Shown here in pieces: positions 21,264 to 45,194 of a DNA stretch of 64,000 bases (positions within the stretch are counted from its first letter, which is position 1; the number at the start of each line of letters is the position of its first letter). This stretch comes from Escherichia coli. Lineage in GTDB: Bacteria; Pseudomonadota; Gammaproteobacteria; Enterobacterales; Enterobacteriaceae. The stretch lies in assembly GCF_003334305.1 (NCBI RefSeq), contig NZ_QOWS01000003.1; one strand, 5' to 3'. The notes under the pieces were generated by a model. The model did no database searches, was not told the DNA's origin, and saw only the letters and a program-made list of their open reading frames with translations. The position numbers and the translations under genes are program-made.

Positions 21264-22544
21264 CTAAAAATTGCCGAGGGGGAACAAGGCCGGGAGCTGC
21301 GACAACAAATATAAAATTAGCCCAATACAACCGCCAACCAGCGTACCGTTGACACGGATAAACTGCAGATCTTTGCCGATATTTAACTCTATTTGCCGCG
21401 ACATATCCCGCGCATCCCAGCTTTTTACCGTATCGCTGATATGGCGCGTCAGGAATGCGGAAAACTCAGGCGCGACGCGGTGCGCGGCTTGTTCCAGATG
21501 ACCATTTAACGACGCCCGCAAGGCATCATCGGCAATTAACGTTTCGCCAAACCATTGACCCGCCCGCGCGATACGTTCTTTCACACGAGAATCTTCACTG
21601 TTGATATCCGCTTTCAGCCATTCCCGTAAATCCCCCCACAATTCACTGAGATAGCGGTTAAAAGCTTCATCTTCTTTCAGATAGCTTTTTACGGCATCAG
21701 CTCGCGCTGCCATTTCAGGATCGTTTTTCAACTTGTCGATCAGGGCAAAAGTGGCGCGATCAAACGCATGGCGGATCTGATGCGCACGATCGCGGCTGAT
21801 ATCATCAAGCAAAGAATTCACCGCGTCAGAAACCAACTCCGCGCTATGTTCGCCCAGCCATTCGGTGGGGAGAATTTTGGCTTTTAGTGGATGCTCGCTC
21901 TCCAGCCAGCGAACAATTTGCTGGGCGATTAACTTGCGCGATTTATCGCGCTGGAGAAGGGCGATCAACTGTGCGATCAGCGTATCCAGCAGCACCTGAT
22001 GACGATCGTTTTTGGTCATACTCTCCAGCATCAACGCACTGGTGCCGGAAAGATCTACCTTATCAATCGCCCGATGGACCGCGCGCTTAAGCAGGCGCTG
22101 AATACGCGCATCATCGGTCAGTTCAAGAAAACCGCTCATGATCTGCAACAGATGCTGACCAACGCGGCGGGCGTTTTCTGGCTGACTAAACCAGTTGCCA
22201 ATCAACAACGCCGGTTCGTGACGTCGAATCAATGCCACCAGCGACTGGGTATCGAGAAATTTTTCCTGCACGAACTGGCCGAGATTTTCGCCAATCCGGT
22301 CTTTATTACGCGGGATAATCGCCGTATGACGAGAAATGATCGGAATCGGCACGCGGCGAAACAGCGCCACCACCGCAAACCAGTCCGCCAGCGCGCCGAC
22401 CATCGCCGCTTCAGCAATCGCCTTCACGCCGCTCACCCAAAAATTGGGCGGCAAAAACAGCGTAACGACAAAGGTAGCAGCGGCGATAAGCAGTAAAGAG
22501 AGCGCCAACATTTTGGCGCGTCTGAGTTCAATGAGTTTATTCAT
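21264..22544 (-). CDS. yjiN: Uncharacterised inner-membrane protein YjiN (DUF445)
   Basis: 426-aa ORF with N-terminal transmembrane segment; recognised YjiN. Confidence 0.85.
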
Positions 22545-22584: not shown

Positions 22585-23817
22585 TCACCGCTCCTCCGCC
22601 AGCTCGGCAGCCTGATGTTGGCGCACGCGATTGAGCAATCCTGCCAGGGTGAAAACGACGATAACGCCCGCCACGACGGCTAACAGATGAAACGGCAAGC
22701 GACCGCCGTTAAACCACAGCCAGCGGCCGATTTCGACCGAGACAGACATCACCATCAGGATCACCATATTCAGCGATGCGGAGACGGTTCCTTTCGGTAA
22801 GTTATTGGAAAAAAGCGTAAAGCGGAATAAGGTCGGGAAGATCAAACCAATCCCGAAAGCATACAAACTGGTGCCCAGCACCGACCACAGCCAGACGTGC
22901 GGTGACAGCAGATTGCCGATAATCAACAGCGCGAGGCCGACCAGTTGAATGGGTACAGCACGCCAGATAAAGCGCGGTTCGGTCGGATCTTTAACGAAAC
23001 GCGCCACGATGGCATTCGCGACAATCACCGCGCCGAACACCGGAACCTGTGTCCAGGCGAACTGCGAAGTTGTTAAGCCGCCTGCGTCAATCAGGATCAC
23101 CGGCGAGACAGCCACCCAACTCATCATCGGGATATAGCTTAAAGAGATGGTTGCTGCGCCAAAGAGGAACAGCCGGTTGCAAAAGACATTACGAAAATCG
23201 CGCAAGACGCTTTTGGCGCTAAATGGAACCGCGCCGCGCTTCACCGTCTCTGGCATCGCCAGCAGTAAGCCAACAAATGAGATAAACCCCATAACCGCAA
23301 TGATGGCAAAAAGGACTTTCCAGTGCACAAAGTGCATCAGAGCTGCGCCGGAAAGCGGGCCAATAATCGGCGCAATCAGTACGATGGAGGTGATAATCGC
23401 CATCAACTTAATCCCTTTTGTCTGTCCGAACGCCTCCTGCACCGTGACATAACCAACGGTAGCAATAAAACAGATACTGGTGCCCTGAATTGCACGCGCG
23501 ATAAGAAACTGTGTCATAGACGTTGTGAACATTGTCGCAGCGCAGGCAAGGGTAAATATTAGCGCCCCGGTAATCAGCACCGGCCTGCGGCCAATCCTGT
23601 CGGAAAGCGGCCCCAGCAGCCACTGTAACGCCATACCCCCCGCGAGATAGAGACTGACGGCAGCCGGAGCCAGACTGACATCGGCATTAAAATCACGGAC
23701 CACATTAATGATCCCCGGCTGGATCAGATCCGTCGAAAGATAGGCGGCAAAGTCATACAAAATCAACGCCATCGGGAAAAACAGCGTAGCGGCATGGCGG
23801 GCAAAAAAACGTGGCAT
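22585..23817 (-). CDS. mdtM: Multidrug efflux MFS transporter
   Basis: 410 aa from [26 protein letters not shown]; 12-TM MFS; recognised MdtM (YjiO). Confidence 0.85.
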
Positions 23818-24283
23818 AACAAACAACTCCTTGTCCGGAGAACCCCAACGGGGAAAACGAAATTCAATACCGTCGGTAATGACGAAAGGCAGGCGAGAAG
23901 GACAAATGTACTGAATTTCATGTAATCAACCACACTGCCTGTGAACACACAGACAGAGAAATACCTTCTGACTCCAGGTCAGAATGTATAACGATTACAA
24001 ATAGTCATCAGCACATTACACCTCTTTAATTGATGGGTTGCATAGAAAATATACACCTTAAGTGTAATTAAAATTTGCGGTTAATCAAAAGAGCGCGGTG
24101 GAAAGGGGAATATCTGCCGGGTACAGGAAATGTAAAACGCGAGCCTGTTTCCGGAAAAATGTATCGTTTGCAGAGGAACACAAATAGCCTGGAAAGCGCC
24201 TCGGGGAACGAGAAATTGCCGGGTGAGAATGGTTTTGTTAGTCGCTACAGTCGGGCCATCTTATCTACAGGTGACGGATCGCC

Positions 24284-25228
24284 ATGACAAACTTCACAAC
24301 CAGCACGCCGCATGACGCATTATTTAAATCCTTTCTCACGCACCCTGACACCGCGCGGGATTTTATGGAGATCCACTTACCCAAAGATTTACGTGAACTG
24401 TGCGATCTCGACAGCTTAAAACTGGAATCCGCCAGCTTCGTCGATGAAAAATTGCGGGCGCTACACTCCGATATTCTGTGGTCGGTAAAGACCCGTGAAG
24501 GTGATGGTTATATTTACGTAGTGATTGAACATCAGAGCCGCGAGGATATCCATATGGCCTTTCGCCTGATGCGATATTCCATGGCGGTGATGCAGCGCCA
24601 TATCGAGCATGATAAACGCCGGCCGCTACCGCTGGTCATCCCGATGCTGTTTTATCACGGTAGCCGTAGTCCTTATCCCTGGTCCCTGTGCTGGCTGGAC
24701 GAATTTGCTGACCCGACCACCGCACGGAAGCTTTATACCGCAGCGTTCCCGCTGGTGGATGTCACTGTCGTGCCAGACGACGAGATTGTGCAGCACCGCA
24801 GAGTCGCCCTGTTGGAGTTGATCCAAAAGCATATTCGCCAGCGCGATCTGATGGGGCTTATCGATCAACTGGTAATATTACTGGTTACAGAGTGTGCTAA
24901 TGACAGCCAGATAACTGCGCTGTTAAATTACATTTTACTGACTGGCGATGAAGCGCGTTTTAAGAAGTTTATCAGCGAACTTACCCGTCGAATGCCACAA
25001 CACAGGGAGCGAATAATGACGATTGCAGAGCGAATTTATAATGATGGATGGCTGTTGGGGATGGAAAAGGGGAAAGAAGAAGGGGAACAACGCCTCCTTA
25101 GATTGTTGTTGCAGAATGGGGCAGATCCTGAATGGATACAAAAGATTACCGGACTTTCGACAGAGCAAATGCAGGCATTAGAGCAGCCCTTGCCTGAAAT
25201 CAAGCGCGATCCATGGATCGAATACTAA
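24284..25228 (+). CDS. rpnD: Recombination-promoting nuclease RpnD (YjiP/YjiQ), apparently intact
   Basis: 314-aa uninterrupted ORF; PD-(D/E)XK-like N-terminal region and C-terminal repeats characteristic of the Rpn (transposase_31-like) family. Confidence 0.75.
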
Positions 25229-25255
25229 TCAGAGACGGATGACAAACGCAAAGCT

Positions 25256-25351
25256 GCCTGATGCGCTACGCTTATCAGACCTACATTTCCTCTGCAATCT
25301 ATTGAATTTGCGCGGTTTGTAGGCCGGATAAGGCGTTCACGCCGCATCCGG
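25256..25351. repeat. BIME (two REP palindromes)
   Basis: gcctgatgcgctacgcttatcagacctac and gtttgtaggccggataaggcgttcacgccgcatccgg between convergent rpnD and yjiR. Confidence 0.6.
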
Positions 25352-25469
25352 TATGAACGAAGCACACTTTGCCTAAGCCATGCTGGAACGTGGCGATGAC
25401 CCTGCAAAGATACAACGAGTTACAGGCGATTCGTGAGAGGAAATCAGGTGCTTCGCCACTAATTCGAAT

Positions 25470-26882
25470 TTATTCCATTGCCCGATACACGGCCTCGCCA
25501 ATTTGCTTTAGTGCTTCGCGATAGGTTTCGCTGAGCGGCAAAGCGCAGTTGATGCGTAGACAATTACGGTATTTGCCGGAAGCCGAGAAAATCGAGCCTG
25601 CTGCCACCTGGATATTCATGCGGCACAGCTGCCGCGCAACGCAGACCATATCGACCTGTTCAGGCAATTCTATCCACAGTAAAAATCCGCCTTTCGGGCG
25701 CGTAATACAGATTTCGCAGGGAAAATATTCCCGTATCCAGCAGGTATAAAGCGCCAAATTGCGCTGATAGCTCTGCCGCATCCGCCGGATATGGCGATGA
25801 TAGTGACCTTCCAGCACAAACGTTGCCGCCGCCATTTGCGTGGACGGCACATTAAAGCTGCTGATGGCGTATTTCATATGCATCAGTTTATCGTGATAAC
25901 GCCCCGGTGCGACCCAACCCACGCGCAGGCCTGGAGCAATACTTTTACTGAACGAGCTGCACAACAACACTCGCCCGTCGATATCCCATGAATGGATGGT
26001 CCGCGGGCGCGGATACTCCGTTGCCAGTTCGCCGTAGACATCATCTTCAAAAATCACAATATCATGACGCTGAGCGAGAGAGAGAACGGCCCGTTTGCGT
26101 GCGTCCGGCATAATAAATCCCAGCGGATTATTACAGTTTGGCACCAGAATGATGCCTTTAATCGGCCACTGTTCCAGCGCCAGTTCCAGTGCTTCAACGC
26201 TGATGCCAGTTTCTGGATCGGTTGGGATTTCAATCACTTTCACGCCCATGCCTCGCAGCATCTGCATCGAACCGTAATAACAGGGAGATTCGACCGCGAC
26301 AATATCGCCCGGTTTACACACCGCCATTAACGCCAGCGACATCGAGTTATGGCAGCCGCTGGTGATGATGATGTCATCGGCGGTGACCACCGAGCCGCTG
26401 TCGAGCATCAGGCGGGCAATCTGCTCCCGCAACACTCGCTGACCGGCTAACAAGTCATAACCGAGAACGGTTTGCAGATTATGCTGCACCACCCGGCTTA
26501 GCTCACGCCACAGCGGTTTCAGGCTGGGCGTTTCGACATCCGGCGTGCTTTTGCTTAACGGAACAATGGAATTGTCGCTATGCGCCTCCAGCATATCCAG
26601 CACCTGATCCCACTGGGTAATTTCCACCGGGCGCTGCACCGGACGCGTCATCGGCGGTACAGGCGGCTGGGCTTTACGTTGTGCGACAAAATAACCCGAA
26701 CGCGGCTGCGGAGTGATGAGCCTCATCGTTTCCAGCGTCTGATACGCCTGTTGCACGGTGCTGATGCTGACGCCGTGCTCCTGACTTAAGCTGCGCACCG
26801 ACGGCAATTTCTCCCCGTGACGATACAGCCCTTGCTCAATCCGCTCGGCAAGTAGAGTCGCCAGATGTTGATAACGCGTCAT
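25470..26882 (-). CDS. yjiR: MocR-type regulator (GntR HTH fused to aminotransferase domain)
   Basis: 470-aa ORF; N-terminal GntR-like HTH (SVRSLSQEHGVSISTVQQAYQTLE) plus class-I aminotransferase-like body. Confidence 0.85.
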   Translation of the reverse strand: MTRYQHLATLLAERIEQGLYRHGEKLPSVRSLSQEHGVSISTVQQAYQTLETMRLITPQPRSGYFVAQRKAQPPVPPMTRPVQRPVEITQWDQVLDMLEAHSDNSIVPLSKSTPDVETPSLKPLWRELSRVVQHNLQTVLGYDLLAGQRVLREQIARLMLDSGSVVTADDIIITSGCHNSMSLALMAVCKPGDIVAVESPCYYGSMQMLRGMGVKVIEIPTDPETGISVEALELALEQWPIKGIILVPNCNNPLGFIMPDARKRAVLSLAQRHDIVIFEDDVYGELATEYPRPRTIHSWDIDGRVLLCSSFSKSIAPGLRVGWVAPGRYHDKLMHMKYAISSFNVPSTQMAAATFVLEGHYHRHIRRMRQSYQRNLALYTCWIREYFPCEICITRPKGGFLLWIELPEQVDMVCVARQLCRMNIQVAAGSIFSASGKYRNCLRINCALPLSETYREALKQIGEAVYRAME

Positions 26883-27058
26883 GCTGTATTCCTTATTTGG
26901 CCCATACAGAAAGAAAAACCGGTACAGATGAGGCTAAAAAACCGGATGCAGATGCTGTTTTAACCTGTCTGTATGTTAAATAAAACTAATATTTGCATCT
27001 GTATTGTGAACTGCCAGAAGGCGGATGATGAAGCCTCTGAAAGATGAGGAGGCAGCAG

Positions 27059-27223
27059 ATGGAATTTCACGAAAACAAAGCCAAAACGCCGTTTATCAGA
27101 CTTGTGCAACTCTGGCATGCGGTGAGGCGTTGGCGGCGGCAAATGCAGACCCGACGAGTGTTACAGCAGATGAGTGATGAACGGTTGAGGGATATTGGGT
27201 TACGCAGGGAGGATGTGGAGTGA
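27059..27223 (+). CDS. yjiS: Small DUF1127 protein YjiS
   Basis: 54-aa ORF MEFHENKAKTPFIRLVQLWHAVRRWRRQMQTRRVLQQMSDERLRDIGLRREDVE; shorter than the ORF-track cutoff; GGAGG RBS about 8 nt upstream. Confidence 0.7.
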   Translation: MEFHENKAKTPFIRLVQLWHAVRRWRRQMQTRRVLQQMSDERLRDIGLRREDVE

Positions 27224-27574
27224 ACTATGGGCGGCGTGTTGGCAAATGCTGCCTGTCTGCATTCAAAATTGCTACAAAATCCAACCATAAAAGTCGTTTA
27301 CAACATATTTTTCTGATTTACATACAGATAATGACCTGAGCTGTCTCTCTGGGGGTCATCATCTATGCGTCCGGGGGATCTGTCACAAAAAGGAATAGAA
27401 CAAAATCATCAGCGGTGAATAAAGCGATTCGTTTTAGATCACATTAATGAAATTTTTGTATCAAAAATTAGTTATCGCGCTCACAGTTCATAATGAAACA
27501 ATTCTCTGCAAATAGATAACCGAAGCTTCGTTGCTAGTATCAATTCGCTAATTATACACCTGCCAGAGGATACA

Positions 27575-30115
27575 ATGAAAAATAGAAATCGTATGATCGT
27601 GAACTGTGTTACTGCTTCCCTGATGTATTATTGGAGCTTACCTGCACTGGCTGAGCAGTCGTCAAGTGAGATAAAGATTGTTCGCGATGAATACGGCATG
27701 CCGCATATTTATGCCAATGATACATGGCACCTATTTTATGGCTATGGCTATGTAGTAGCACAAGATCGCCTTTTTCAGATGGAAATGGCACGTCGCAGTA
27801 CTCAAGGGACTGTCGCGGAAGTGCTTGGCAAAGATTTTGTGAAATTTGATAAAGATATCCGTCGTAACTACTGGCCGGATGCTATCCGGGCGCAAATTGC
27901 TGCCCTTTCCCCAGAGGATATGTCCATTCTGCAAGGCTACGCTGATGGAATGAATGCCTGGATTGATAAGGTAAATACCAATCCAGAGACGCTCTTACCA
28001 AAACAGTTTAATACATTTGGCTTTACTCCTAAGCGCTGGGAACCGTTTGATGTCGCGATGATATTTGTGGGCACCATGGCAAACCGCTTCTCTGATAGCA
28101 CTAGCGAAATTGATAATCTGGCACTGCTAACGGCTTTAAAAGATAAATATGGTGTATCACAAGGCATGGCGGTATTTAATCAGTTGAAATGGCTGGTAAA
28201 CCCATCAGCGCCAACCACTATTGCCGTACAAGAGAGTAACTACCCACTTAAATTTAATCAGCAAAACTCGCAAACAGCAGCTCTGTTGCCACGCTACGAT
28301 TTACCTGCACCAATGCTTGACCGACCAGCAAAAGGGGCGGATGGCGCACTGCTGGCGTTAACAGCAGGGAAGAACCGGGAAACTATTGCTGCACAATTTG
28401 CACAGGGTGGTGCCAATGGTCTGGCGGGGTATCCAACGACCAGCAATATGTGGGTGATCGGCAAAAGCAAAGCCCAGGATGCGAAAGCAATCATGGTAAA
28501 TGGTCCGCAGTTTGGCTGGTATGCGCCTGCGTATACTTATGGTATTGGTCTGCACGGTGCTGGTTATGATGTCACTGGCAATACACCATTTGCCTATCCT
28601 GGGCTGGTTTTTGGTCATAATGGTGTGATTTCCTGGGGATCAACGGCAGGTTTCGGCGATGATGTCGATATTTTTGCTGAACGGCTGTCGGCAGAGAAAC
28701 CAGGCTACTACTTGCATAATGGTAAGTGGGTGAAAATGTTAAGCCGTGAGGAAACCATTACGGTGAAAAATGGTCAGGCAGAGACCTTTACTGTCTGGCG
28801 TACGGTGCATGGCAACATTCTCCAAACTGACCAGACGACACAAACGGCTTACGCTAAATCCCGCGCATGGGATGGTAAAGAGGTGGCGTCTTTGCTGGCC
28901 TGGACTCATCAGATGAAGGCCAAAAATTGGCAGGAGTGGACACAGCAGGCAGCGAAACAAGCACTGACCATCAACTGGTACTATGCTGATGTAAACGGCA
29001 ATATTGGTTATGTTCATACTGGTGCTTATCCAGATCGTCAATCAGGCCATGATCCGCGATTACCCGTTCCTGGTACGGGAAAATGGGACTGGAAAGGGCT
29101 ATTGCCTTTTGAAATGAACCCTAAGGTGTATAACCCCCAGTCGGGATATATTGCTAACTGGAACAATTCTCCCCAAAAAGATTATCCCGCTTCAGATCTG
29201 TTTGCCTTTTTGTGGGGTGGTGCAGATCGCGTTACGGAGATCGACCGACTGCTTGAGCAAAAGCCACGCTTAACTGCTGATCAGGCATGGGATGTTATTC
29301 GCCAAACCAGTCGTCAGGATCTTAACCTGAGGCTTTTTTTACCTACTCTGCAAGCAGCGACATCTGGTTTGACACAGAGCGATCCGCGTCGTCAGTTGGT
29401 AGAAACATTAACACGTTGGGATGGCATCAATTTGCTTAATGATGATGGTAAAACCTGGCAGCAGCCAGGCTCTGCCATCCTGAACGTTTGGCTGACCAGT
29501 ATGTTGAAGCGTACCGTAGTGGCTGCCGTACCTATGCCATTTGATAAGTGGTACAGCGCCAGTGGCTACGAAACAACCCAGGACGGCCCAACTGGTTCGC
29601 TGAATATAAGTGTTGGAGCAAAAATTTTGTATGAGGCGGTGCAGGGAGACAAATCACCAATCCCACAGGCGGTTGATCTGTTTGCTGGGAAACCACAGCA
29701 GGAGGTTGTGTTGGCTGCGCTGGAAGATACCTGGGAGACTCTTTCCAAACGCTATGGCAATAATGTGAGTAACTGGAAAACACCTGCAATGGCCTTAACG
29801 TTCCGGGCAAATAATTTCTTTGGTGTACCGCAGGCCGCAGCGGAAGAAACGCGTCATCAGGCGGAGTATCAAAACCGTGGAACAGAAAACGATATGATTG
29901 TTTTCTCACCAACGACAAGCGATCGTCCTGTGCTTGCCTGGGATGTGGTCGCACCCGGTCAGAGTGGGTTTATTGCTCCCGATGGAACAGTTGATAAGCA
30001 CTATGAAGATCAGCTGAAAATGTACGAAAATTTTGGCCGTAAGTCGCTCTGGTTAACGAAGCAGGATGTGGAGGCGCATAAGGAGTCGCAGGAAGTGTTG
30101 CACGTTCAGAGATAA
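27575..30115 (+). CDS. pac: Penicillin G acylase precursor (Ntn-hydrolase; signal peptide, alpha subunit, spacer, beta subunit)
   Basis: 846-aa ORF; N-terminal signal peptide; [10 protein letters not shown] motif containing the N-terminal nucleophile Ser of the beta subunit; recognised E. coli penicillin G amidase. Confidence 0.9.
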
Positions 30116-30128
30116 TTAAGCCCGAAAG

Positions 30129-30155
30129 CCCTCATATTCTGGAGGAATATGAGGG
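30129..30155. terminator. Stem-loop between convergent pac and yjiA
   Basis: Inverted repeat ccctcatattc-tggag-gaatatgaggg, 14 nt after the pac stop. Confidence 0.45.
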
Positions 30156-30192
30156 TGATAAAGTCTCAGGTATTGTGATGTTGGAGGGCTGG

Positions 30193-31149
30193 TTACTTTT
30201 TGAGTCCCGCAAACGCCGCCCGAATCTCATCCTCCGGCAACTGAATCCCGATAAACACCATCGTGCTATGCGGTGTTTCATCGCCCCATGGCCTGTCCCA
30301 GTCGGCGCTGTAGAGGCGCTGGACGCCCTGGAACAGCAGGCGGTTAGGTTCGCCGTCAATCCACAGCATCCCTTTGTAACGCAGCAGTTTATCCGCCGAT
30401 TCCAGCAGCAGGTTTTCCATCACCCGGGAAACTTCGCTGATATCTACCGGGTAATCCAGTTCCACCACAATCGACGAAATATCGTTTTGTTTGTCCGCGA
30501 TAAAATGGAAACGCGGTTTGGTGCTGACGACGTTTTCTTCCAGCATAAAACCGTTGGTGTTGAACAGCAGACCCAGGTCGATGTCGCCGTGGGTGACGGT
30601 GTAGACCGGTGCACGGGCGTTGATGCGTGCCAGACGTTCACGCAGTTTTTCTGCTTCGCCTGCGACGTCGGTTTTAGTCAGCAGAATACGGTCGGCGTAG
30701 CCCACCTGGGACTGGGCGATGGTGAACTGGTTCATCTGCTCATCGGCATGTACCGCATCCACCAGCGCAATCACGCCGTCCAGCAGGTAGCGCTGGCATA
30801 AAATCTCATGGGAGAAAAAGGTTTGAATAATCGGGCCAGGATCGGCCATGCCGGTGCATTCAATGACCAGACGATCGAACTGAATATTGCCCTTGTCGAG
30901 ATTATCCAGCAGGTCGAGTAGCGCGTCCTCCAGCTCGTTGGAGCGCGAACAGCAGATGCAGCCGTTGGTCAGCGTTTTGATCTGCGTTGCGCGATCACCA
31001 ATCAATTGATCATCAACGGAGACTTCGCCGAATTCGTTTTCAATCACGGCAATCTTGTAGCCGTGTTGTTCATTAAGAATATGGCGCAGCAGGGTGGTTT
31101 TGCCCGCGCCTAAAAAACCGGTGAGTAGGGTAACTGCAATCGGGTTCAT
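30193..31149 (-). CDS. yjiA: COG0523-family GTPase (metal chaperone-like) YjiA
   Basis: 318 aa from MNPIAVTLLTGFLGAGKTTLL (P-loop); the 346-aa ORF-track start is rejected. Confidence 0.9.
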   Translation of the reverse strand: MNPIAVTLLTGFLGAGKTTLLRHILNEQHGYKIAVIENEFGEVSVDDQLIGDRATQIKTLTNGCICCSRSNELEDALLDLLDNLDKGNIQFDRLVIECTGMADPGPIIQTFFSHEILCQRYLLDGVIALVDAVHADEQMNQFTIAQSQVGYADRILLTKTDVAGEAEKLRERLARINARAPVYTVTHGDIDLGLLFNTNGFMLEENVVSTKPRFHFIADKQNDISSIVVELDYPVDISEVSRVMENLLLESADKLLRYKGMLWIDGEPNRLLFQGVQRLYSADWDRPWGDETPHSTMVFIGIQLPEDEIRAAFAGLKK

Positions 31150-31159
31150 GCTCTCTCCA

Positions 31160-31363
31160 TTAACAACAGCGCATACCGCCTTTACCATCGCCGCCGTAGC
31201 GTGCGTTCTGGCGTTCGCGGAAGAATTCTTCATAGCTCATGTACGGCTTGTCGGGATGGTTGGTCTTCATATGCTCGACGTAGTTGTCGTAGTCTGGAAT
31301 GCCAATCAACATCTTCGCCGCCTGGCCGAGATATTTTTTTGCCTGTCCTAAGTTACCAAACAT
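31160..31363 (-). CDS. yjiX: Small DUF466 protein YjiX
   Basis: 67-aa [31 protein letters not shown]...; sits between btsT and yjiA as in K-12. Confidence 0.85.
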
Positions 31364-31384
31364 AGTTCACTCTGATAAGAACAA

Positions 31385-31404
31385 AGCCCCGCCGAAGCGG
31401 GGCT
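31385..31404 (-). terminator. Rho-independent terminator after btsT
   Basis: agccccgc-cgaa-gcggggct hairpin 9 nt downstream of the btsT stop, followed on the minus strand by a T-rich run. Confidence 0.6.
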
Positions 31405-31412
31405 AAATACGG

Positions 31413-33563
31413 TTAGTGGTGCGAAGAGATCTTCACGCCGCCTTCCGGGATTGGAACGTACGGTGTTTCTTTGTCAGTACGTTTGTCGCTGTTACGCACA
31501 TTCAGCCAGGTTTTGAAACCGTAGAAGATGATGCTGTACACCACAATCAGGAACAGAATACTCAGGCCTGCGTTGGTGTAGTTGTTCACAACGATGTGGT
31601 TCATGTTGGCAATCTGCTGCGCCGTCAGGTCAGTACCGTTAGCAATCTTCTCTTTGTACTGGCTTGCCATGTAGAAGAAGCCTTCCATCTGCGGGTTGGT
31701 GCTGAACAGTTTCAGACCCAGCGCCCAGGTGGTGCAGATAAGCAGCCATACAGCCGGAACAACAGTTACCCAGATGTATTGGGTGCGCTTCATCTTAATC
31801 AGCACAACGGTGCCCAGTACCAGCGCTACGGCTGCCAGCATCTGGTTGGAAATACCGAACAGCGGCCACAGGCTCTTAACGCCGCCCAGCGGATCGACCA
31901 CGCCCTGATACAGCAGGTAGCCCCACAGACCCACACAGCCCGCAGTACCGATGATACCGGCAACCAGAGAGTCGGTTTTTTTCAGGAACGGGATGAAGTT
32001 ACCCAGCAGGTCTTGCAGCATAAAGCGGCCAGAACGAGTACCCGCATCCAGCGCGGTCAGGATGAACAGGGCTTCGAACAGAATACCGAAGTGATACCAG
32101 AAGCCCATGTCAGCCATCGGCAGCACTTTGTGGAACACGTGAGCGATACCTACCGCCAGCGTTGGCGCACCACCTGCACGGTTCAGGACAGAAGGCTCAC
32201 CAATGTCTTTCGCGGTTTGCAGGATCTGCTCTGGCGAAATCACGAAGCCCCAGGAGCTGACGGTCGCTGCCGCGTGTGCGGTAACGTCTTTCAGCTGCGC
32301 CATGATGATCGGCGCGTTCTCGCCACCCATTTCATGCAGGTTAGGCATGGTGATGCCAAGGCCAGCAGGCGGGGTATTCATCGCGAAGTAAAGACCCGGT
32401 TCGATGATGGACGCTGCAACCAGCGCCATAATCGCCACGAAGGACTCCATCAGCATTGCGCCGTAGCCAATGAAACGCGCGTCGGTTTCGTTAGCCAGCA
32501 GTTTTGGCGTCGTACCGGAAGAGATCAGCGCGTGGAAGCCAGATACCGCACCACAGGCGATGGTGATGAACAGGAACGGGAACAGAGCGCCTTTCCACAG
32601 CGGGCCAGTACCGTCAATGTACTGGGTCGTCGCAGGCATTTTCAGTTCCGGGTTCAGCACCACGATACCCAGCGCCAGGCCGACGATAACGCCGATTTTC
32701 AGGAAGGTTGCCAGATAGTCGCGCGGTGCGAGGATCAGCCACACCGGCAGCAGTGCGGAAACAAACGCATAGCCAATCAGCGCGAAGGTAATGGTGGTGT
32801 CTTTAAAGGTCAGTGCCGGACCCCAGTACGGATCGTGAGCAATCACGCCACCGAAGTAGATAGAGGCAACCAGCAGCACGATACCAATGACAGAGACTTC
32901 ACCCACACGCCCCGGACGGATAAAGCGCATGTAGATACCCATAAACAGCGCAATCGGTACGGTTGAGCAAACGGTGAAAACACCCCACGGGCTTTCGGCC
33001 AGGGCTTTAACCACAATCAGCGCCAGGACGGCAAGGATGATGATCATGATTAAGAAACAGCCAAACAGCGCGATAGTCCCCGGTACTGGTCCCATCTCTT
33101 CTTTGATCATCTCACCGAGAGATGCGCCGTTACGGCGAGAGGAGATAAACAGCACCATAAAGTCCTGTACCGCACCGGCCAGTACTACCCCCGCCAGCAG
33201 CCACAGCGTGCCAGGTAGGTAGCCCATCTGCGCGGCGAGAACCGGACCAACCAGCGGACCAGCACCGGCGATAGCGGCGAAGTGGTGACCAAACAACACG
33301 TAACGGTTGGTCGGAACATAGTTCAGACCGTCGTTGTTAATAACCGCAGGCGTCGCGCGCGTGGGGTCGAGTTTCATCACCTTCTGGGCGATGTACAGAC
33401 TGTAGTAGCGATAAGCCACCAGATACACCGACACAGAGGCGACCACGATCCACAGGGCGCTGACGTGCTCCCCCCGACGTAATGCAACTACCGCGAGGCA
33501 GAATGCACCGATGATTCCGAGAATCACCCAGGGTATGTGCTTGAATAGTTTTTTCGTATCCAT
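31413..33563 (-). CDS. btsT: Pyruvate/H+ symporter (CstA family) BtsT/YjiY
   Basis: 716 aa from MDTKKLFKHIPWVILG; polytopic CstA-like transporter; recognised YjiY. Confidence 0.9.
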   Translation of the reverse strand: MDTKKLFKHIPWVILGIIGAFCLAVVALRRGEHVSALWIVVASVSVYLVAYRYYSLYIAQKVMKLDPTRATPAVINNDGLNYVPTNRYVLFGHHFAAIAGAGPLVGPVLAAQMGYLPGTLWLLAGVVLAGAVQDFMVLFISSRRNGASLGEMIKEEMGPVPGTIALFGCFLIMIIILAVLALIVVKALAESPWGVFTVCSTVPIALFMGIYMRFIRPGRVGEVSVIGIVLLVASIYFGGVIAHDPYWGPALTFKDTTITFALIGYAFVSALLPVWLILAPRDYLATFLKIGVIVGLALGIVVLNPELKMPATTQYIDGTGPLWKGALFPFLFITIACGAVSGFHALISSGTTPKLLANETDARFIGYGAMLMESFVAIMALVAASIIEPGLYFAMNTPPAGLGITMPNLHEMGGENAPIIMAQLKDVTAHAAATVSSWGFVISPEQILQTAKDIGEPSVLNRAGGAPTLAVGIAHVFHKVLPMADMGFWYHFGILFEALFILTALDAGTRSGRFMLQDLLGNFIPFLKKTDSLVAGIIGTAGCVGLWGYLLYQGVVDPLGGVKSLWPLFGISNQMLAAVALVLGTVVLIKMKRTQYIWVTVVPAVWLLICTTWALGLKLFSTNPQMEGFFYMASQYKEKIANGTDLTAQQIANMNHIVVNNYTNAGLSILFLIVVYSIIFYGFKTWLNVRNSDKRTDKETPYVPIPEGGVKISSHH

Positions 33564-33842
33564 AGTAAAACCTGGCATTTTACTCGTCGTCTTTTGGCTT
33601 ACAGGTGCGGCAGCTGCGTTCGTTCACCTCTGTCACTTACTGTTGCAAGCTCCCGGGGATTCACTCACTTGCTGCCTTCCTGCAAACCAAAATCCATAGA
33701 GTAATTTGTTAATCATAGGCCGAAGCCGTTCTAGGTTTGCGTTGCGTTTGAGGAGGTAAATTGACCGCTATCCTGCAGTGATGTTGCCAGAGATACGCGC
33801 GCGTAAAGTAAGGTAAATAACTGAGTGGTTATTTTAGGGATG

Positions 33843-33870
33843 TAAGCGGTCAGGAATGGCGGTGAGCGGT
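33843..33870 (-). promoter_or_regulatory. Putative BtsR (YehT, LytTR) binding site: direct repeat upstream of btsT
   Basis: On the btsT-sense strand reads ACCGCTCA-N12-ACCGCTTA, matching the ACC(G/A)CT(C/T)A direct repeat I recall for YehT at the yjiY promoter; about 280 nt upstream of the btsT start. Confidence 0.5.
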
Positions 33871-33922
33871 TGGGCAAGAATTATTCATCGGGTGGATATG
33901 TGATTGAGATCACAATAAAAAT

Positions 33923-33949
33923 GCCCCTTCGACGAATGCGTGAAGGGGC
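33923..33949 (-). terminator. Rho-independent terminator after hpaC
   Basis: gccccttc...gaaggggc hairpin immediately after the hpaC stop, followed on the minus strand by ATTTTTATT. Confidence 0.6.
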
Positions 33950-33955
33950 TGGAGC

Positions 33956-34468
33956 TTAAATCGCAGCTTCCATTTCCAGCATCACCGGATGGAAACGGCG
34001 TTTAAAGTAAATAAGTCCGTGACCTTCTGCACTGAGGATGATGTTTTTAATCTCCACCAGATACACCAGATGTGTGCCAATCGCCTGCACATCGCGGATC
34101 TCTCCTTCAAGACTGGCCAGCGAACCTTTCAGCACCGGCTGCGCCAGCGGACCTTTTTGCCAGCATGAGAGGCTAAAACGCTCTTCCATCGCCATGCCTG
34201 TCATGCCCGCGAAGTGGCGTGCCATCAGTTCCTGCTCATGGTTGAGGACGTTGACGCACAACTTACCGTTGCCCTGAAAAACCGGGTTCATCGCACTGTT
34301 GGCGTTAATGCACACCATCAGCGACGGTGGTGTATCCGTGACCGAGCAGACGGCCGTTGCCGTAATTCCGCATTGTCCGGCGTCGCCCTCGGTGGTGATA
34401 ATATTTACCGCTGCCGACAGGCTGGCCATTGCGTCACGAAAGCGCAGGCGTTGTTCATCTAATTGCAT
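33956..34468 (-). CDS. hpaC: 4-HPA 3-monooxygenase reductase component (flavin:NADH reductase)
   Basis: 170-aa ORF; recognised HpaC. Confidence 0.9.
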   Translation of the reverse strand: MQLDEQRLRFRDAMASLSAAVNIITTEGDAGQCGITATAVCSVTDTPPSLMVCINANSAMNPVFQGNGKLCVNVLNHEQELMARHFAGMTGMAMEERFSLSCWQKGPLAQPVLKGSLASLEGEIRDVQAIGTHLVYLVEIKNIILSAEGHGLIYFKRRFHPVMLEMEAAI

Positions 34469-34485
34469 CTTAACCTCCTGCTGCG

Positions 34486-36048
34486 TTATTTCAGCAGCTT
34501 ATCCAGCATGTTGATATCGTCGTTGTTGTGCAGGTGCGGCACAGTCCAGCCGTTCTGGTCGTATTCCGACAGGCAGCGATCAACCATCGCCATCATCTTG
34601 TCCATATTGCCGGAGCTTTGTGCCTGGCGCAGACACTGCAGGCGAATCTCATCCTGGCTACCGGAGTAGTTGATTTCATACAGTTCGTGACGACCACCAA
34701 ACTCGCTGCCAATGGCATCCCACATCAGTTTGAGGATCTTGATGCGCTGGACGTGATCCATACCGTTCGAACCGCGCACATACTTCGCCAGATACTGGTC
34801 GATCTGCGGATTGTTCAGGTCACGGGCACTGGAAGGGAGATAGATCAGGCCACTGGTAACGTTGCGTTCGATAATGTTTTTGATCTTCGCGTAGGCCATT
34901 GGTGCCAGTACGCGATAGGTTTGCAGTGCGGCATGATCCGGTAAATAAGCCCCGTTGACCCACGGCGTCGCTTCAGAACACATCGAGTCACTCAATGCCC
35001 AGAAGGTGTTGCGCCACGCCACCACTTCACCGAGATCGGCCTGCACACCACGGAACTCCAGGGTGCCGGTACATTCGAGTGATTTTTTCAGCAGTGCCGT
35101 AATGAAGTCGAGTTTCACTGCCAGGCGCACACAGGCTTGCAGCGGATACATACGGGCGAAACCGCCTTCCATCGTCCAGCGACGGCAGCGATCAAAATCG
35201 CGGTAGATCAGCACGTTTTCCCATGGGATCAGCACGTTATCCATCACCAGAATCGCATCGTTCTCATCGAAGCGGCTGGAGAGCGGGTAGTCGTACGGCG
35301 AGCCGGTAGCACCCGCGACCATCTCATAAGAGGCGCGGGAGATTAATTTCACGCCATCGGCATCCATTGGCGCAACGAACATCAGTGCGAAGTCCGGGTT
35401 TTCGCCCATTACTTGTGCCGAGCCGAAGCCAATCATGTTGTAGTGAGTCAGCGCCGAGTTGGTGGCAACCACTTTCGCACCGCTAACGATAATCCCGGCG
35501 TCAGTCTCTTTTTCCAGCTTGATGTAAACGTCTTTCACTTTATCGGTCGGCAAATGACGATCGATCGGTGGGTTAACAATCGCGTGGTTAAAGTAGAGGC
35601 CAGTTTCCTGAATACGGGTGTACCAGTTACGGGCGTTCTGCTCGAACTGACCGTAAAAGCCCGGATTCGCGCCCAGTGCGCAACCGAAAGCAGCTTTGTA
35701 GTCTGGGGTACGGCCCATCCAGCCATAGCTCAGGCGTGACCATTCAGCGATGGCGTCGCGTTGCTGGCGCAGGTCGTCGGCACTTTTCGCCACGCGGAAG
35801 AATTTATGGGTATAGCCGCCGCTGCCGGTGTCGGTGTTCCAACACAGAGAGTCCTGCATCTCCGGTTTGTGCAGCGCGTCGTACAGTTGGGCAACAGACG
35901 CTGCCGCATTACGAAATGCCGGATGAGTGGTGACGTCTTTCACTCGCTCGCCATAGATATAGATCTCGCGACCATCCTGCAGGCTTTTCAGATACTCTTC
36001 CCCGGTGAAAGGACGTTGGGTACTGGCGCGGAAATCTTCTGGTTTCAT
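34486..36048 (-). CDS. hpaB: 4-hydroxyphenylacetate 3-monooxygenase oxygenase component
   Basis: 520-aa ORF; recognised HpaB. Confidence 0.9.
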   Translation of the reverse strand: MKPEDFRASTQRPFTGEEYLKSLQDGREIYIYGERVKDVTTHPAFRNAAASVAQLYDALHKPEMQDSLCWNTDTGSGGYTHKFFRVAKSADDLRQQRDAIAEWSRLSYGWMGRTPDYKAAFGCALGANPGFYGQFEQNARNWYTRIQETGLYFNHAIVNPPIDRHLPTDKVKDVYIKLEKETDAGIIVSGAKVVATNSALTHYNMIGFGSAQVMGENPDFALMFVAPMDADGVKLISRASYEMVAGATGSPYDYPLSSRFDENDAILVMDNVLIPWENVLIYRDFDRCRRWTMEGGFARMYPLQACVRLAVKLDFITALLKKSLECTGTLEFRGVQADLGEVVAWRNTFWALSDSMCSEATPWVNGAYLPDHAALQTYRVLAPMAYAKIKNIIERNVTSGLIYLPSSARDLNNPQIDQYLAKYVRGSNGMDHVQRIKILKLMWDAIGSEFGGRHELYEINYSGSQDEIRLQCLRQAQSSGNMDKMMAMVDRCLSEYDQNGWTVPHLHNNDDINMLDKLLK

Positions 36049-36298
36049 GTCGACCTCTACAGTATTAATCGGAATACGATTGTTAATTTTGTGTGTTGTT
36101 TTTGTTATTTAATTGAAGCTTGCAGGGGCGATTACGGGAAGACACTTTTGGGACAATGGCTGGTACTTTTCAGGTCGGGTACGGTTTTGTGATCGAGGTC
36201 GCTTTTAGCGATTTTTAACGTTACTAAATCCCCTTGCTCCAGGCGGAGAAAGGGGAATAGCAGGTGGTGCCTGGTTTCCCGTTAAGGCTAAGGGATTT

Positions 36299-37189
36299 TC
36301 ACGTCACAGGTACTTTTTTGGCACGATAAGCACTGGGCGAGCAACCGACTAAGCGATTAAAAAAGCGCGCAAAATAAGCCGGATCTTTAAAACCGAGTTG
36401 CCAGGCAATATTGTTCACGGCGTTATCAGAAAACAGCAGCAGCCGCTTGGCTTCTCGTAGCTGCCTGTCGAAAATCAACCGTTTTGGCGGACGGTTGGCA
36501 AAGCGGCGGCAGATGTCCGTGAGTCGTGATTCGGTGATATGCAGTTCGTTAGCGTAATCCGGTACTGTCCAGTGCTGATGAAAATGGCTTTCAATCAGCA
36601 TATTAAAACGCTGGAACAGTTTTAATTCTCCGCGCATCCCGCTGGCGGCATGGTCGTCGAGTTTTGCATTACGCAGCAGTAGGGTGAACACTGCCTGTGC
36701 CAGTAGCGTCAGGGTGTGTTCCCGTCCAGGCAGTTGTTCCACCGATTCCCGCTCTATCAGTTGCCAATAGTGTTCCAGCGCCGCCAGTTCGTCGGGTTTA
36801 TCTGCCAGTGACAGGCAAATCCCCGGCAGGCCGAAGGTTTCCCGAGTGCCTGGATAAAGAACTTCCAGCAGGGGCCAGATCAGATCTTCCCGTACCGTCA
36901 ACACATGACCGTCGGCGTCAGACTCCGTAATAAACGCATGAGGTACTGACGGTGGCGTCAGGACAAACAGGGGCGCTTCCACCGAGTAGCGATGATCGTC
37001 AAGCTGTAGCTCAATCTGTCCGCTATTGAGGAAATGCATCTGAAAGTACTGTTCGTGGCGATGTGGCAGCATATGGCGGCCAAAAAAGGCCGCCATGCGG
37101 GCGAACGACTGATAATGCACATCGTCCGTGCCCAGGCTTTCATCGTACTCTTTGCTGATATCAATATTGGCAATCTGACGGTCACACAT
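36299..37189 (-). CDS. hpaA: AraC/XylS-family activator of hpaBC
   Basis: 296-aa ORF with C-terminal AraC-type HTH; cupin-like N-terminal region. Confidence 0.85.
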   Translation of the reverse strand: MCDRQIANIDISKEYDESLGTDDVHYQSFARMAAFFGRHMLPHRHEQYFQMHFLNSGQIELQLDDHRYSVEAPLFVLTPPSVPHAFITESDADGHVLTVREDLIWPLLEVLYPGTRETFGLPGICLSLADKPDELAALEHYWQLIERESVEQLPGREHTLTLLAQAVFTLLLRNAKLDDHAASGMRGELKLFQRFNMLIESHFHQHWTVPDYANELHITESRLTDICRRFANRPPKRLIFDRQLREAKRLLLFSDNAVNNIAWQLGFKDPAYFARFFNRLVGCSPSAYRAKKVPVT

Positions 37190-37198
37190 CGTCGTTCC

Positions 37199-38575
37199 TT
37201 ACGGGGTCGCTCGCGGACGGGAGGACTGCATTGGAATCGCCCAGATAATCCCCGCACCAATCACCAGCAGCGCGGCAACAAACCACAATCCACTGTTAAA
37301 GCTGCCGGTCAGATCTTTCAACCAGCCGATCATAAACGGACTTAACGCTGAACCAATGTTGCCAGTGGCGTTGATCACCGCAATACCGATCGCTCGTGCC
37401 CGCAGGCTGATGGACTGATCCGGTGTTGTCCAGAAAATCGCCATTGCGCTGAATGATCCGGTCGAAGCCATAATGATCCCCAGCATCTGGATCATGTTGT
37501 GATCAGTTGCCGAAGCCAGTAACCAACCTGCGGCAGCGAACAAATAAGGAAGGGCGGTGTGATGCCTTCGTTCCTGGCGGCGATCTGAGTGACGGCTCCA
37601 GTAGACCATCCCGAGAATGGTACAAATCTGCGGTACGGCGGCCAGCAGGCCGATGGTGATATTACTGCTGCCCTGATTAAAACTTTGCAGGATCTGCGGT
37701 GTCCAGATGCTGATCGCACTAAGTGTGTTGGTCAGGCAGAAATACGCCAGGGTATACATCATCACCACCGGAGTGAAGATCTCCCGCCACATACTGCGTT
37801 GTTGCATGGCGTGGTGGCTGATGGCTCCCTCTGGCTGAACCAGCGTCAGACGATCGTTATCCATCATCTCTTGCAGGCATTTTTTGTCTTCTTTCGTCAG
37901 CCACTTAGCTTTGTCCGGTGAGTCATCAAGCCAGAACCACACCATGACGCCGAGTAATACCGACGGGAAGCCTTCCAGCAAAAACAGCCACTGCCAGCCT
38001 TTTAATGCCATTACGCCATCCAGCGACAAAATGTAGCCGGAAACGAGCGATCCCAACGCTGTCGTTACCGGCATTGCAACCATAAACAAGGCGTTGGCAC
38101 GGGCGCGGAAATAGGCCGGAAACCAGAAGGTTAAATACAGCAGAATGCCAGGCAGAAAGCCGGCTTCGGTAATGCCAACCAGTATACGCAGTACGTACAA
38201 GCTGGTGGGGCCAGTGGCAAACATGGTGGCAGTAGAGGCGATGCCCCAGAGCACCATGATGGTGGCGATCCAGCGCCGCGCACCGACAATACTCAGCATA
38301 ATGTTGCTGGGAATGCCGAAGATGACATAAGCGGCATAGAACAGGGTGGTAGCGAGGCCAAACATGGTGGCGCTCAGACCGAGGTCGCGTCCCATCGTGA
38401 GTCCGGCAAAGCCGATGTTGATGCGATCAAGGAACGAGAAGATAAACAGCACGAACAGAAAGACGATCAGGCGGCGAAATAGCTTCTTAATAACCGCCTG
38501 TTGTCCGGCAGTCAGCGCTTTATGCTGATTCGCCGGATCGATACTCTCCGGTATGGCAGGTGAGGTGTCGCTCAT
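37199..38575 (-). CDS. hpaX: 4-hydroxyphenylacetate MFS transporter
   Basis: 458 aa from MSDTSPAIPESIDPANQ; 12-TM MFS permease; the longer ORF start is rejected. Confidence 0.85.
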   Translation of the reverse strand: MSDTSPAIPESIDPANQHKALTAGQQAVIKKLFRRLIVFLFVLFIFSFLDRINIGFAGLTMGRDLGLSATMFGLATTLFYAAYVIFGIPSNIMLSIVGARRWIATIMVLWGIASTATMFATGPTSLYVLRILVGITEAGFLPGILLYLTFWFPAYFRARANALFMVAMPVTTALGSLVSGYILSLDGVMALKGWQWLFLLEGFPSVLLGVMVWFWLDDSPDKAKWLTKEDKKCLQEMMDNDRLTLVQPEGAISHHAMQQRSMWREIFTPVVMMYTLAYFCLTNTLSAISIWTPQILQSFNQGSSNITIGLLAAVPQICTILGMVYWSRHSDRRQERRHHTALPYLFAAAGWLLASATDHNMIQMLGIIMASTGSFSAMAIFWTTPDQSISLRARAIGIAVINATGNIGSALSPFMIGWLKDLTGSFNSGLWFVAALLVIGAGIIWAIPMQSSRPRATP

Positions 38576-38624
38576 TTTTCTTCCTCTAATGGGATTTTTG
38601 TAGGGTACGACAAGGTTTATGGCG

Positions 38625-38745
<121 letters not shown>

Positions 38746-38749
38746 GGCA

Positions 38750-39538
38750 TTAATACACGCCGGGCTTCACGGCGGTGGCCTGCGCACCAAACCGTGCTGC
38801 CAGCGCTTCAGCGGCGCGGGCGAGCAGGGTGGTGTCAACGCCGACGGCGACAAACAGCGCGCCCAGTTCCAGATAGCGTTTTGCCAGTTGCTCATTGGCG
38901 ATCAGGATCCCCGGCGCTTTGCCCGCTTCGCGGATCTGCACGATCGCCTGCTCAATGGCGGCCTGTACTTCCGGGTGCTGCGGATTACCGGCATAACCCA
39001 TATCGGCGCTCAGATCCGCCGGGCCGATAAACACGCCGTCGACCCCTTCCACGTCCAGAATCTGCGGTAAGTTCTTCATTGCCTCACGCGTTTCGATCTG
39101 CACCAGCACGCACATTTGATCGTTGGCTTTTTGCAGGTAATCAGGAATGCGATTCCAGCGCGAGGCACGGGCCAGCGCACTGCCCACACCGCGAATACCG
39201 GCGGGGGGATAACGGGTGGCGCGTACCGCTTCACGGGCTTCGTCAGCGTTTTGAACCATCGGCACCAGTAAGGTTTGTGTGCCGACGTCCAGCAGTTGTT
39301 TGATTTGCACCGGATCGTTCCACGACGGACGTACTACCGGCTGGCTGGGGTAGGGCGCAATCGCCTGTAGCTGGGTGAGCACGGTTTGCACGTTATTCGG
39401 CGCGTGCTCACCGTCGATCAATAACCAGTCGAATCCTGCTCCGGCCAGTAACTCTGCGCTGTAGCTGCTACTTAGCCCCAGCCATAATCCGATCTGCGGG
39501 CGGCCTGCTTTCAGCGCCGCTTTAAAACTGTTTTCCAT
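38750..39538 (-). CDS. hpaI: 2,4-dihydroxyhept-2-ene-1,7-dioate aldolase (HpcH/HpaI)
   Basis: 262 aa from [20 protein letters not shown]; the ORF-track 5' extension is rejected. Confidence 0.85.
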
Positions 39539-39548
39539 CGTTCTCTCC

Positions 39549-40352
39549 TTAAACAAAGCGGCAGCTAATGGAGCCCATGTTGCCGTAATCGACGTGGAAG
39601 GTGTCGCCCTTACGCGCCGGAACCGGGCGGGTGAACGAACCGCCGAGAATGATTTGCCCGGCTTCCAGTTGTACGTCATACGGTGCGAGTTTGTTCGCCA
39701 GCCAGGCCACGCCGTTTGCCGGATGATTTAGCACGCCAGCGGCGACGCCGGTTTCTTCAATCACGCCATTGCGATACATCAGGGCGGAGATCCAACGCAG
39801 ATCCAGTTCGTCTGGTTTGATCGGACGACCGCCGAGGATCACTCCGGCGTTGGCGGCGTTATCAGAAATGGTGTCGAACACTTTGCGCGGGCGCTGGGTT
39901 TCCGGATCGATGTTGTGGCAGCGAGCGTCGATCAGCTCCAGCGCCGGGATCACGTAGTCCGTGGCGTTGTAGACGTCGAACAGCGTGCAGTTTGGCCCAC
40001 GCAGCGGTTTTGCCAGCACGAAAGCCAGCTCCACTTCAATGCGCGGCACGATAAAGCGATCGGTCGGGATATCGCTGCCATCGTGGAAGAACATGTCGTC
40101 CAGCAATGCACCGTAATCTGGTTCGCTGATTTGTGAGCTGGCCTGCATCGCTTTCGAGGTCAGACCGATTTTGTGGCCTTTCAGCGTACGGCCTTCGGCG
40201 ATTTTCAGTCGAACCCATTCACGCTGCACCGCGTAAGCGTCTTCGATGGTGATCTCCGGGTAATCCAGGGAGATCGCGCGGATCTGTTCGCGCTGTTTTT
40301 CTGCCTGATCCAGACGCTGGGCGATCAGGGTGTGGGTGTGTTTATCGAACAT
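39549..40352 (-). CDS. hpaH: 2-oxo-hept-4-ene-1,7-dioate hydratase
   Basis: 267 aa from [20 protein letters not shown]; recognised HpaH/HpcG. Confidence 0.85.
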
Positions 40353-40419
40353 AGCGATATCCTGTGGCATTGCCGGATGCGGCTGCGCCTTATCATCCGG
40401 CCTGGAAGCTGGTGCAAAT

Positions 40420-40800: not shown

Positions 40801-40809
40801 GGTGGTTCC

Positions 40810-41661: not shown

Positions 41662-41662
41662 A

Positions 41663-44415: not shown

Positions 44416-44440
44416 TACCACTCCTCGGATTCGATCATTT

Positions 44441-45133: not shown

Positions 45134-45194
45134 CTTTTTAGTATCTGATAACCAGCGCCTGGTTTTTCCATGGATGGCGGGTTACACCTTTTCA

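Follow-up and report, generated by a model that had tools for sequence, protein, structure and literature searches.

A penicillin G acylase gene in the yjiS-yjiA slot of Escherichia coli: a probable restriction-free allele of the immigration control region

A single gene, pac, lies between yjiS and yjiA

We analysed a 64,000-nucleotide stretch of an Escherichia coli chromosome (contig NZ_QOWS01000003.1 of assembly GCF_003334305.1), hereafter the window, in which the interval between the core genes yjiS and yjiA carries pac, the gene for penicillin G acylase. The gap measures 2,969 bp (27224-30192), running from the base right after the yjiS stop codon to the base right before the yjiA stop codon, and pac is the sole gene annotated in it. 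The annotation was transferred from the RefSeq record NZ_CP010132.1, a genome that is 100% identical over window positions 25400-32000. Gene order across the locus is yjiN (21264-22544), mdtM, rpn, yjiR, yjiS, pac and yjiA, and to the right of pac the matching genomes annotate yjiA, yjiX and btsT. The features of the locus, with the evidence for each in brackets, are as follows.

27059-27223, plus strand: yjiS, DUF1127, 54 amino acids, left conserved anchor (transferred annotation and junction alignments)
27224-27417, no strand assigned: distal pac spacer, about 195 bp, E. coli-specific (blastn and tblastx against Kluyvera, Lelliottia and Silvania)
27418-27574, plus strand: conserved pac regulatory region (cross-genus alignment)
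27575-30115, plus strand: pac, penicillin G acylase precursor, 846 amino acids (Pfam PF01804 and PDB chain alignments)
27575-27652, plus strand: pac signal peptide, residues 1-26 (left over by the start of the PDB alpha chain)
27653-28279, plus strand: pac alpha chain, residues 27-235 (aligned by solved PDB alpha chains)
28280-28441, plus strand: pac spacer peptide, residues 236-289, 54 residues (between the aligned chains)
28442-30112, plus strand: pac beta chain, residues 290-846, the first residue being the nucleophile Ser290 (aligned by solved PDB beta chains)
30116-30192, no strand assigned: pac-yjiA 3′ spacer, 77 bp, between convergent genes, specific to the pac cassette (junction and cross-genus comparisons)
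30129-30155, no strand assigned: inverted repeat I24, perfect 11-bp stem and 5-nt loop, CCCTCATATTC / GAATATGAGGG (repeat search)
30193-31149, minus strand: yjiA, GTPase, 318 amino acids, right conserved anchor (transferred annotation and junction alignments)

A first-pass annotation, made from the letters of the window without database searches, had proposed that pac stands alone in a slot that K-12 fills with its restriction cluster, and had given the K-12 order. That order agrees with the MG1655 record, which reads yjiS, yjiT, yjiV′ (a pseudogene), mcrC, mcrB, symE/symR, hsdS, hsdM, hsdR, mrr and yjiA, with 15,993 bp between the yjiS and yjiA stop codons. The 846-amino-acid open reading frame (ORF) of pac is present where it had been placed, BLAST homology to K-12 ends at 27223 and resumes at 30206, and annotation and BLAST agree that pac is alone in the slot held by the mcr/hsd/mrr cluster in K-12.

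The proposal would fail if the window were misassembled, the restriction cluster being really present and merely collapsed out of it. We give this next to no credence, as the same contiguous yjiR-yjiS-pac-yjiA-btsT arrangement, with identical junctions, recurs in 1,068 independent complete genomes, many of them 100% identical over 6.6 kb. All 64 kb of the window are moreover collinear with the closed chromosome of strain C10, from fimC to prfC.

The pac product is a member of the Penicil_amidase family (PF01804), with residues 33-834 covering positions 2-675 of the 675-position model at E = 1.5e-138. Its beta chain is identical at 557 of 557 residues to 1GK9_B/1PNK/1GM9, the crystallised E. 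coli penicillin G acylase, which we take to derive from the E. coli W strain line, and its alpha chain scores 470.9 bits against 1AI4_A over 209 residues. To judge from this identity to a characterised enzyme, the product would be a periplasmic N-terminal nucleophile (Ntn) hydrolase, predicted to undergo autoproteolysis and to hydrolyse penicillin G and phenylacetyl amides. The leader would be cut on export and the 54-residue spacer would then be removed autocatalytically, exposing Ser290 as the nucleophile. Its natural role, according to the literature, is the scavenging of phenylacetylated amides and esters, yielding phenylacetate for the paa pathway.

The pac cassette at the immigration control region

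The immigration control region (ICR) between yjiA and yjiN has been described in a 2025 EcoSal Plus review as the first defence island studied (PMC12707154). Surveyed across the Enterobacteriaceae (Table 3 of that review), it shows 36% Type I and 22% Mrr, and the non-defence cargo named there includes ‘hydrolytic enzymes (penicillinase)’ and ‘aldehyde dehydrogenase’ (PMC12707154). The locus in the window is alike in being a variable cassette between conserved anchors, with pac lying between conserved yjiN/yjiS and yjiA, and in having alleles that are swapped as blocks at common junctions. The reviewed alleles are mostly of Type I or Type IV, whereas in the pac allele the yjiS-yjiA interval is devoid of defence genes. 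We consider it highly probable that the window represents a ‘pac allele’ of the E. coli ICR, the hypervariable yjiS-yjiA slot.

The alternative cassettes that occupy this slot were surveyed in 5,426 complete E. coli genomes. The pac segment was found in 1,075 of them and was at least 99% identical in 1,060; in 1,068 (19.7%) pac was essentially complete and contiguous with both flanks, always at this site, and no copy was seen at any other chromosomal site in the 5,426 genomes. A few copies are truncated or disrupted by insertion sequences (IS; matches H48 and H70). A full K-12 cassette, taken as 80% coverage or more, occurs in 538 genomes, many of which are laboratory derivatives. One further match to the K-12 cassette (H110) was discarded, being a repeat element of 127 bp that lies between puuR and puuC and has no relation to the ICR.

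K-12, O157:H7, O26 and sequence type 131 (ST131) types of cassette were found at the same junctions, all starting 0-5 nt from the yjiS stop codon and ending at the yjiA stop codon. The K-12 cassette (15,993 bp) encodes Type IA hsd, mcrBC and mrr systems; those of O157:H7 (10,517 bp) and O26 (9,962 bp) carry DUF262/GmrSD, symE and Type IB hsd genes, together with either an HNH protein or a hypothetical protein accompanied by an antitoxin; that of ST131 (8,903 bp) carries symE, hsdR/S/M, a restriction endonuclease and brnTA. The cassette of the window is a self-contained unit of 2,969 bp, without a mobility gene. Short alleles, with at most 2 kb between the anchors, were found in 72 genomes, and those listed are IS1-scarred and hold DUF262 remnants. 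The ‘empty’ or IS-scarred ICR alleles of E. coli C and Crooks are likewise restriction-less at the same slot; in contrast to the short alleles, the pac allele is intact, IS-free and about 15 times commoner.

When 20 proteins of the K-12, O157 and ST131 cassettes were searched against the whole 64-kb window (tblastn, E ≤ 1e-3), none had a match, so this locus supplies neither Type I nor Type IV restriction. This bears out, at this locus and within the window, the earlier suggestion that the strain may lack restriction of the McrBC/EcoKI type here. A genome with pac at its ICR need not be defenceless, as strain C10 (below) illustrates.

Junctions of the pac allele and its probable movement between lineages

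We compared the junctions of five alleles, namely those of this window, K-12, O157:H7, ST131 and O26, and found that all five share both breakpoints, one at the yjiS stop codon and one at the yjiA stop codon. On the left, yjiS is common to all five through its TGA stop, after which the pac allele diverges at once; the four restriction-type alleles have GGGG in common after the TGA before they diverge. On the right, the last 13 nt of yjiA in the pac allele (30193-30205) differ by 6 substitutions from all four restriction-type alleles (TTACTTTTTGAGTCC in the pac allele versus TTACTTCCTCAACCC), changing the C-terminus from AGLRK to AGLKK. The right junction thus sits inside the last codons of yjiA, 13 nt in. 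In a spread sample of 60 genomes, the pac-type tip was found in 11, which is about the frequency of pac, and the others match from position 14 only. By these alignments, the 13-nt yjiA tip travels with pac.

The possibility that a whole yjiA allele is linked to pac and exclusive to pac genomes was rejected, as exclusivity holds for the 13-nt tip only. The body of the pac-linked yjiA also occurs outside pac genomes, so tight linkage is limited to the last 13 nt. The pac-linked yjiA is 94-96% identical to the other alleles over the first 250-750 nt, and identity climbs to about 99% past 1 kb.

An alternative is that pac is a recent islet, brought in by a mobile element or through site-specific recombination, with loss of the restriction cluster on its arrival. 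The first-pass annotation had seen no integrase, IS or direct repeats there, and annotation and repeat search uphold it: the pac junctions have no integrase, transposase, IS end, transfer RNA (tRNA) gene or bracketing direct repeat, and the sole repeat pair that spans them (D7, 18 of 23 nt) looks chance-level. The AT-rich upstream region of pac and its low GC content at third codon positions (GC3) are typical of horizontally acquired DNA, yet pac occupies one identical site in 1,068 genomes, and the same site in other genera. A gene for an Rpn-family recombination-promoting nuclease lies 2 kb to the left (24284-25228), but that gene is present in every allele, K-12 included. IS1-scarred short alleles do occur at the slot, in 72 genomes. 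No genuine plasmid among 72,556 plasmid records carries pac; the matches were one of 147 bp in Acinetobacter and three E. coli records that, at 0.4-4.8 Mb, are most likely chromosomes under a wrong label. We therefore regard a recent mobile insertion as very improbable.

The exchange proposed at the outset, through homologous recombination within the core genes on either side, fits the common breakpoints and the divergence gradient and is supported as far as these can test it. We infer that the pac allele, like the other ICR cassettes, moved between lineages in this way and was otherwise inherited vertically. Two points weigh against this account: the recombination would be deduced from missing signatures of other processes together with the divergence gradient, and the body of the pac-linked yjiA is found at 99% identity in some genomes that do not have the tip (matches H120 and H123).

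The same slot holds pac in other genera

A cross-genus scan, which matched exact peptide patterns in a single genome of each species, identified pac homologues with 80-87% amino acid identity in seven Kluyvera species, Silvania confinis, Lelliottia nimipressuralis, Leclercia adecarboxylata (fragmented) and an Enterobacter metagenome-assembled genome (MAG), and more distant homologues (72%) in Buttiauxella. Except in Buttiauxella, these homologues occupy the same slot, with yjiS or yjiN on one side and yjiA-yjiX-btsT on the other. They share it with genes for an exporter of the LysE family, a regulator of the AraC family, a putative NADP-dependent aldehyde dehydrogenase and a small secreted protein, and in two loci with BrnT-like toxin ORFs; no restriction genes were found among these companions. 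In the Leclercia adecarboxylata strain NCTC13032 the slot pac (locus L020, 7061-9478) is split into three ORFs of 183, 370 and 224 amino acids and is an apparent pseudogene.

The Kluyvera enzyme resembles that of the window in sequence (86-87% amino acid identity), in processing architecture, in its yjiS-yjiA slot and in its promoter region, which is about 80% identical. We take the PDB entries 4PEM/4PEL to be the penicillin G acylase of Kluyvera cryocrescens (formerly K. citrophila). The Kluyvera slot differs in holding extra genes: upstream of pac, those for an AraC-family regulator and a LysE-family exporter, and downstream of it, those for a putative aldehyde dehydrogenase and a secreted protein of 181 residues. 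None of these is in the E. coli slot; a remnant of the AraC-family gene, sought in the upstream spacer of the E. coli pac, was not found.

Between E. coli and Kluyvera, the nonsynonymous divergence (dN) of pac is 0.076, between those of yjiA (0.05) and yjiR (0.13). Synonymous sites of pac are saturated (proportion of synonymous differences, pS, 0.72-0.74), so the split cannot be dated. The GC3 of pac is 0.45 in the window, compared with 0.58-0.68 in yjiR, yjiS, yjiA, yjiX and btsT and 0.71 in the pac genes of Kluyvera, Silvania and Lelliottia. The E. coli pac is not a recent import from any sampled genus; it is either ancestral to the slot or was acquired from a relative, outside the sample, that has the same synteny.

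These comparisons bear on the claim, in the first-pass annotation, that the restriction block had been replaced by pac. The differing occupancy stands, but the direction implied takes the restriction block to have come first and may be backwards. Under a reversed polarity, pac together with other metabolic genes would be the older resident of the yjiN/yjiS-yjiA slot in this branch of the Enterobacteriaceae, and the restriction cassettes of the K-12/O157 type would have arrived later and displaced it. This order is favoured by the pac homologues that occupy the slot in Kluyvera (seven species), Silvania, Lelliottia, Leclercia (a pseudogene) and the Enterobacter MAG, and by their companions there (aldehyde dehydrogenase, LysE exporter, AraC regulator), with no restriction genes among them; yet the exact-peptide scan, at one genome per species, yielded no pac locus from other Escherichia species, Salmonella or Citrobacter. 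The retention of about 175 bp of pac promoter across genera, and a dN for pac that falls between those of yjiA and yjiR, as expected for orthologues of equal age, point the same way, but saturation at synonymous sites puts that age beyond resolution. Within the species, moreover, pac varies less than its flanks do (identity of 99% or more in 1,060 of the 1,075 carriers), suggesting a shorter residence, and its GC3 is off the E. coli equilibrium. We consider the reversed order possible, if unlikely, and view with similar doubt its corollary that the window would show a retained, ancestral-type allele and no replacement.

Neither vertical descent nor transfer out of a sampled genus accounts for the gap in GC3. 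The value of 0.45 disfavours a recent transfer from such a genus, and just as well a long residence at E. coli base composition.

Candidate control sequences upstream and downstream of pac

The first-pass annotation had noted an AT-rich upstream region of about 350 bp, and the pac upstream spacer indeed measures 351 bp, with a GC content of 0.37 (27250-27549) compared with about 0.50-0.59 in the flanking genes. It divides into two parts. The distal part (27224-27417) is matched solely in the 1,075 pac genomes; K-12, the other cassettes and the other genera have nothing corresponding to it. The proximal 175 bp or so (about 27400-27574) are about 80% identical to Kluyvera and 75-79% identical to the Enterobacter MAG, Lelliottia and Silvania, with cross-genus matches starting at positions 168-203 of a query that begins at 27224, and those found by blastn at 195-203 (27418-27426). 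Conserved blocks in this part include GATTCGTTTTAGATCACATT at 27425-27444, within which GATTCG...GATCACA occupies 27425-27443, and CTCACAGTTC.

A candidate core promoter within the proximal part, TTGCTA (27531-27536), 16 nt and TATACA (27553-27558), is near-invariant across genera (TATACA/CATACA) and is followed by a Shine-Dalgarno sequence, GAGGA, at 27566-27570. A sigma-70 promoter scan called no plus-strand promoter upstream of pac; TTGCTA-N16-TATACA went uncalled because the rule of the scan demands that the -10 hexamer have T as its sixth base. Within the pac cassette, a search of 23500-34500 against Rfam (E ≤ 1) gave no match.

The pac promoter has been reported to be bound by the PaaX repressor, with relief by phenylacetyl-CoA, and the gene to be regulated by cAMP-CRP (PMC9493321); on this literature, PaaX would repress the promoter and cAMP-CRP would activate it. 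The best motif matches in the window lie within the conserved blocks, a PaaX-like one at 27421-27435 (3 mismatches) and CRP-like ones at 27428-27443 and 27470-27485, with PaaX-like and CRP-like matches overlapping in the block at 27425-27444. The sites were assigned with the PaaX and CRP consensus sequences, and the exact operator positions are presumptive. Counts of matches lend the assignment no support: the PaaX operator consensus (WWTRTGATTCGYGWT) has 22 matches where 32 are expected in shuffled sequence, and the CRP consensus has 195 where 221 are expected. The matches being no commoner than chance, the assignment is literature-based and the sites are candidates only.

Downstream, the 3′ spacer has no K-12 homologue, and blastn and tblastx searches with 30100-30200 gave no match in other genera. 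The stem of the inverted repeat at 30129-30155 has 11 perfect pairs, 5 of them G-C, and the 86-nt stretch 30110-30195 folds at -27.6 kcal/mol, with z = -2.75 on the plus strand and z = -4.65 on the minus strand. This hairpin could stop transcription of either of the convergent genes, pac or yjiA. Of the earlier description of it as a hairpin terminator, the hairpin is confirmed, and an intrinsic terminator is a candidate at most: on the plus (pac) strand no T-run follows the hairpin, on the minus strand just CTTTCGGGCTT follows it, and the terminator scan did not call it.

Neighbouring features in the window

To the right of the locus, 3.8 kb from pac, a cluster of eleven hpa genes for 4-hydroxyphenylacetate catabolism lies between btsT and tsr (33870-45190). 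K-12 is without hpa, homology to it jumping from window position 33869 to 45191, and this absence has been noted before (PMC3032704). O26 has hpa but no pac, so the two are not strictly linked. In E. coli W, pac and hpa are presumably linked on the map. Members of the cluster include the following.

33956-34468: hpaC
34486-36048: hpaB
about 44687-45133: hpaR

The btsT-hpaC intergenic region, upstream of btsT, contains a perfect CRP consensus, TGTGATTGAGATCACA, at 33899-33914, which is the sole zero-mismatch CRP match within the 64-kb window.

Repetitive extragenic palindromic (REP)-type repeats occur at 33613-33685 and 25277-25358. The first of these, 73 nt long, follows btsT and has an 85% match in the K-12 hsdM-hsdR spacer; the puuR-puuC spacer has a similar repeat. 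The REP-derived small RNA family ES036/CssrF at 25277-25319 (minus strand) was the only above-gathering Rfam match in 23500-34500, and a sub-threshold naRNA4 match adjoins it.

A second hypervariable patch of the ICR, at about 24970-25470, covers the 3′ end of rpn (gene 24284-25228) and the rpn-yjiR spacer; it is 77-88% identical to K-12, O157 and ST131 and 99.5-100% identical to O26. The rpnD gene is intact in the window (314 amino acids), a pseudogene in K-12 and frameshifted in O157.

Strain C10, which bears pac, has an integrative and conjugative element (ICE) adjoining fim, just to the left of the position that corresponds to the fimC end of the window (NZ_CP010132.1, 1546000-1595990, locus L024). 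Its cargo includes a Wadjet JetD-domain gene, a restriction endonuclease that binds phosphorothioated DNA and a DUF4007/ATPase/phosphoadenosine phosphosulfate (PAPS)-reductase trio.

Discussion

That pac lies in the ICR in place of the hsd/mcr/mrr cluster was described for E. coli W (ATCC 9637 / ATCC 11105) by Archer et al. (2011, BMC Genomics 12:9, PMC3032704). The window has the same gene in the same slot, with no difference of substance. The presence of pac in the restriction slot, published in 2011, is thus real but ordinary. The 20% frequency, the junction inside yjiA and the cross-genus synteny with a conserved promoter were not stated in the literature that we searched, and we regard the frequency, the junction and the synteny as incremental additions.

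We put forward tentatively, and with more doubt than conviction, the combined view that pac, far from being an oddity of strain W, is both the non-defence allele found most often at the E. coli ICR (about 20%, twice the full K-12 configuration) and an ancient orthologous resident of the slot, which Kluyvera, Lelliottia, Silvania and Leclercia share along with its promoter. If it is true, one metabolic allele and several restriction alleles would long have coexisted as a polymorphism at the ‘defence island’, with the restriction cassettes as the invaders. The synteny across genera makes a modest evolutionary point, in that a metabolic allele can be stably housed in a ‘defence island’.

For E. 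coli itself, the pac allele places a gene whose product is among the best-studied industrial enzymes at the ICR, and the strains that carry it, about a fifth of sequenced E. coli, are without restriction of the EcoKI, McrBC and Mrr types at that locus, which partly explains the easy uptake of foreign DNA by W-type strains.

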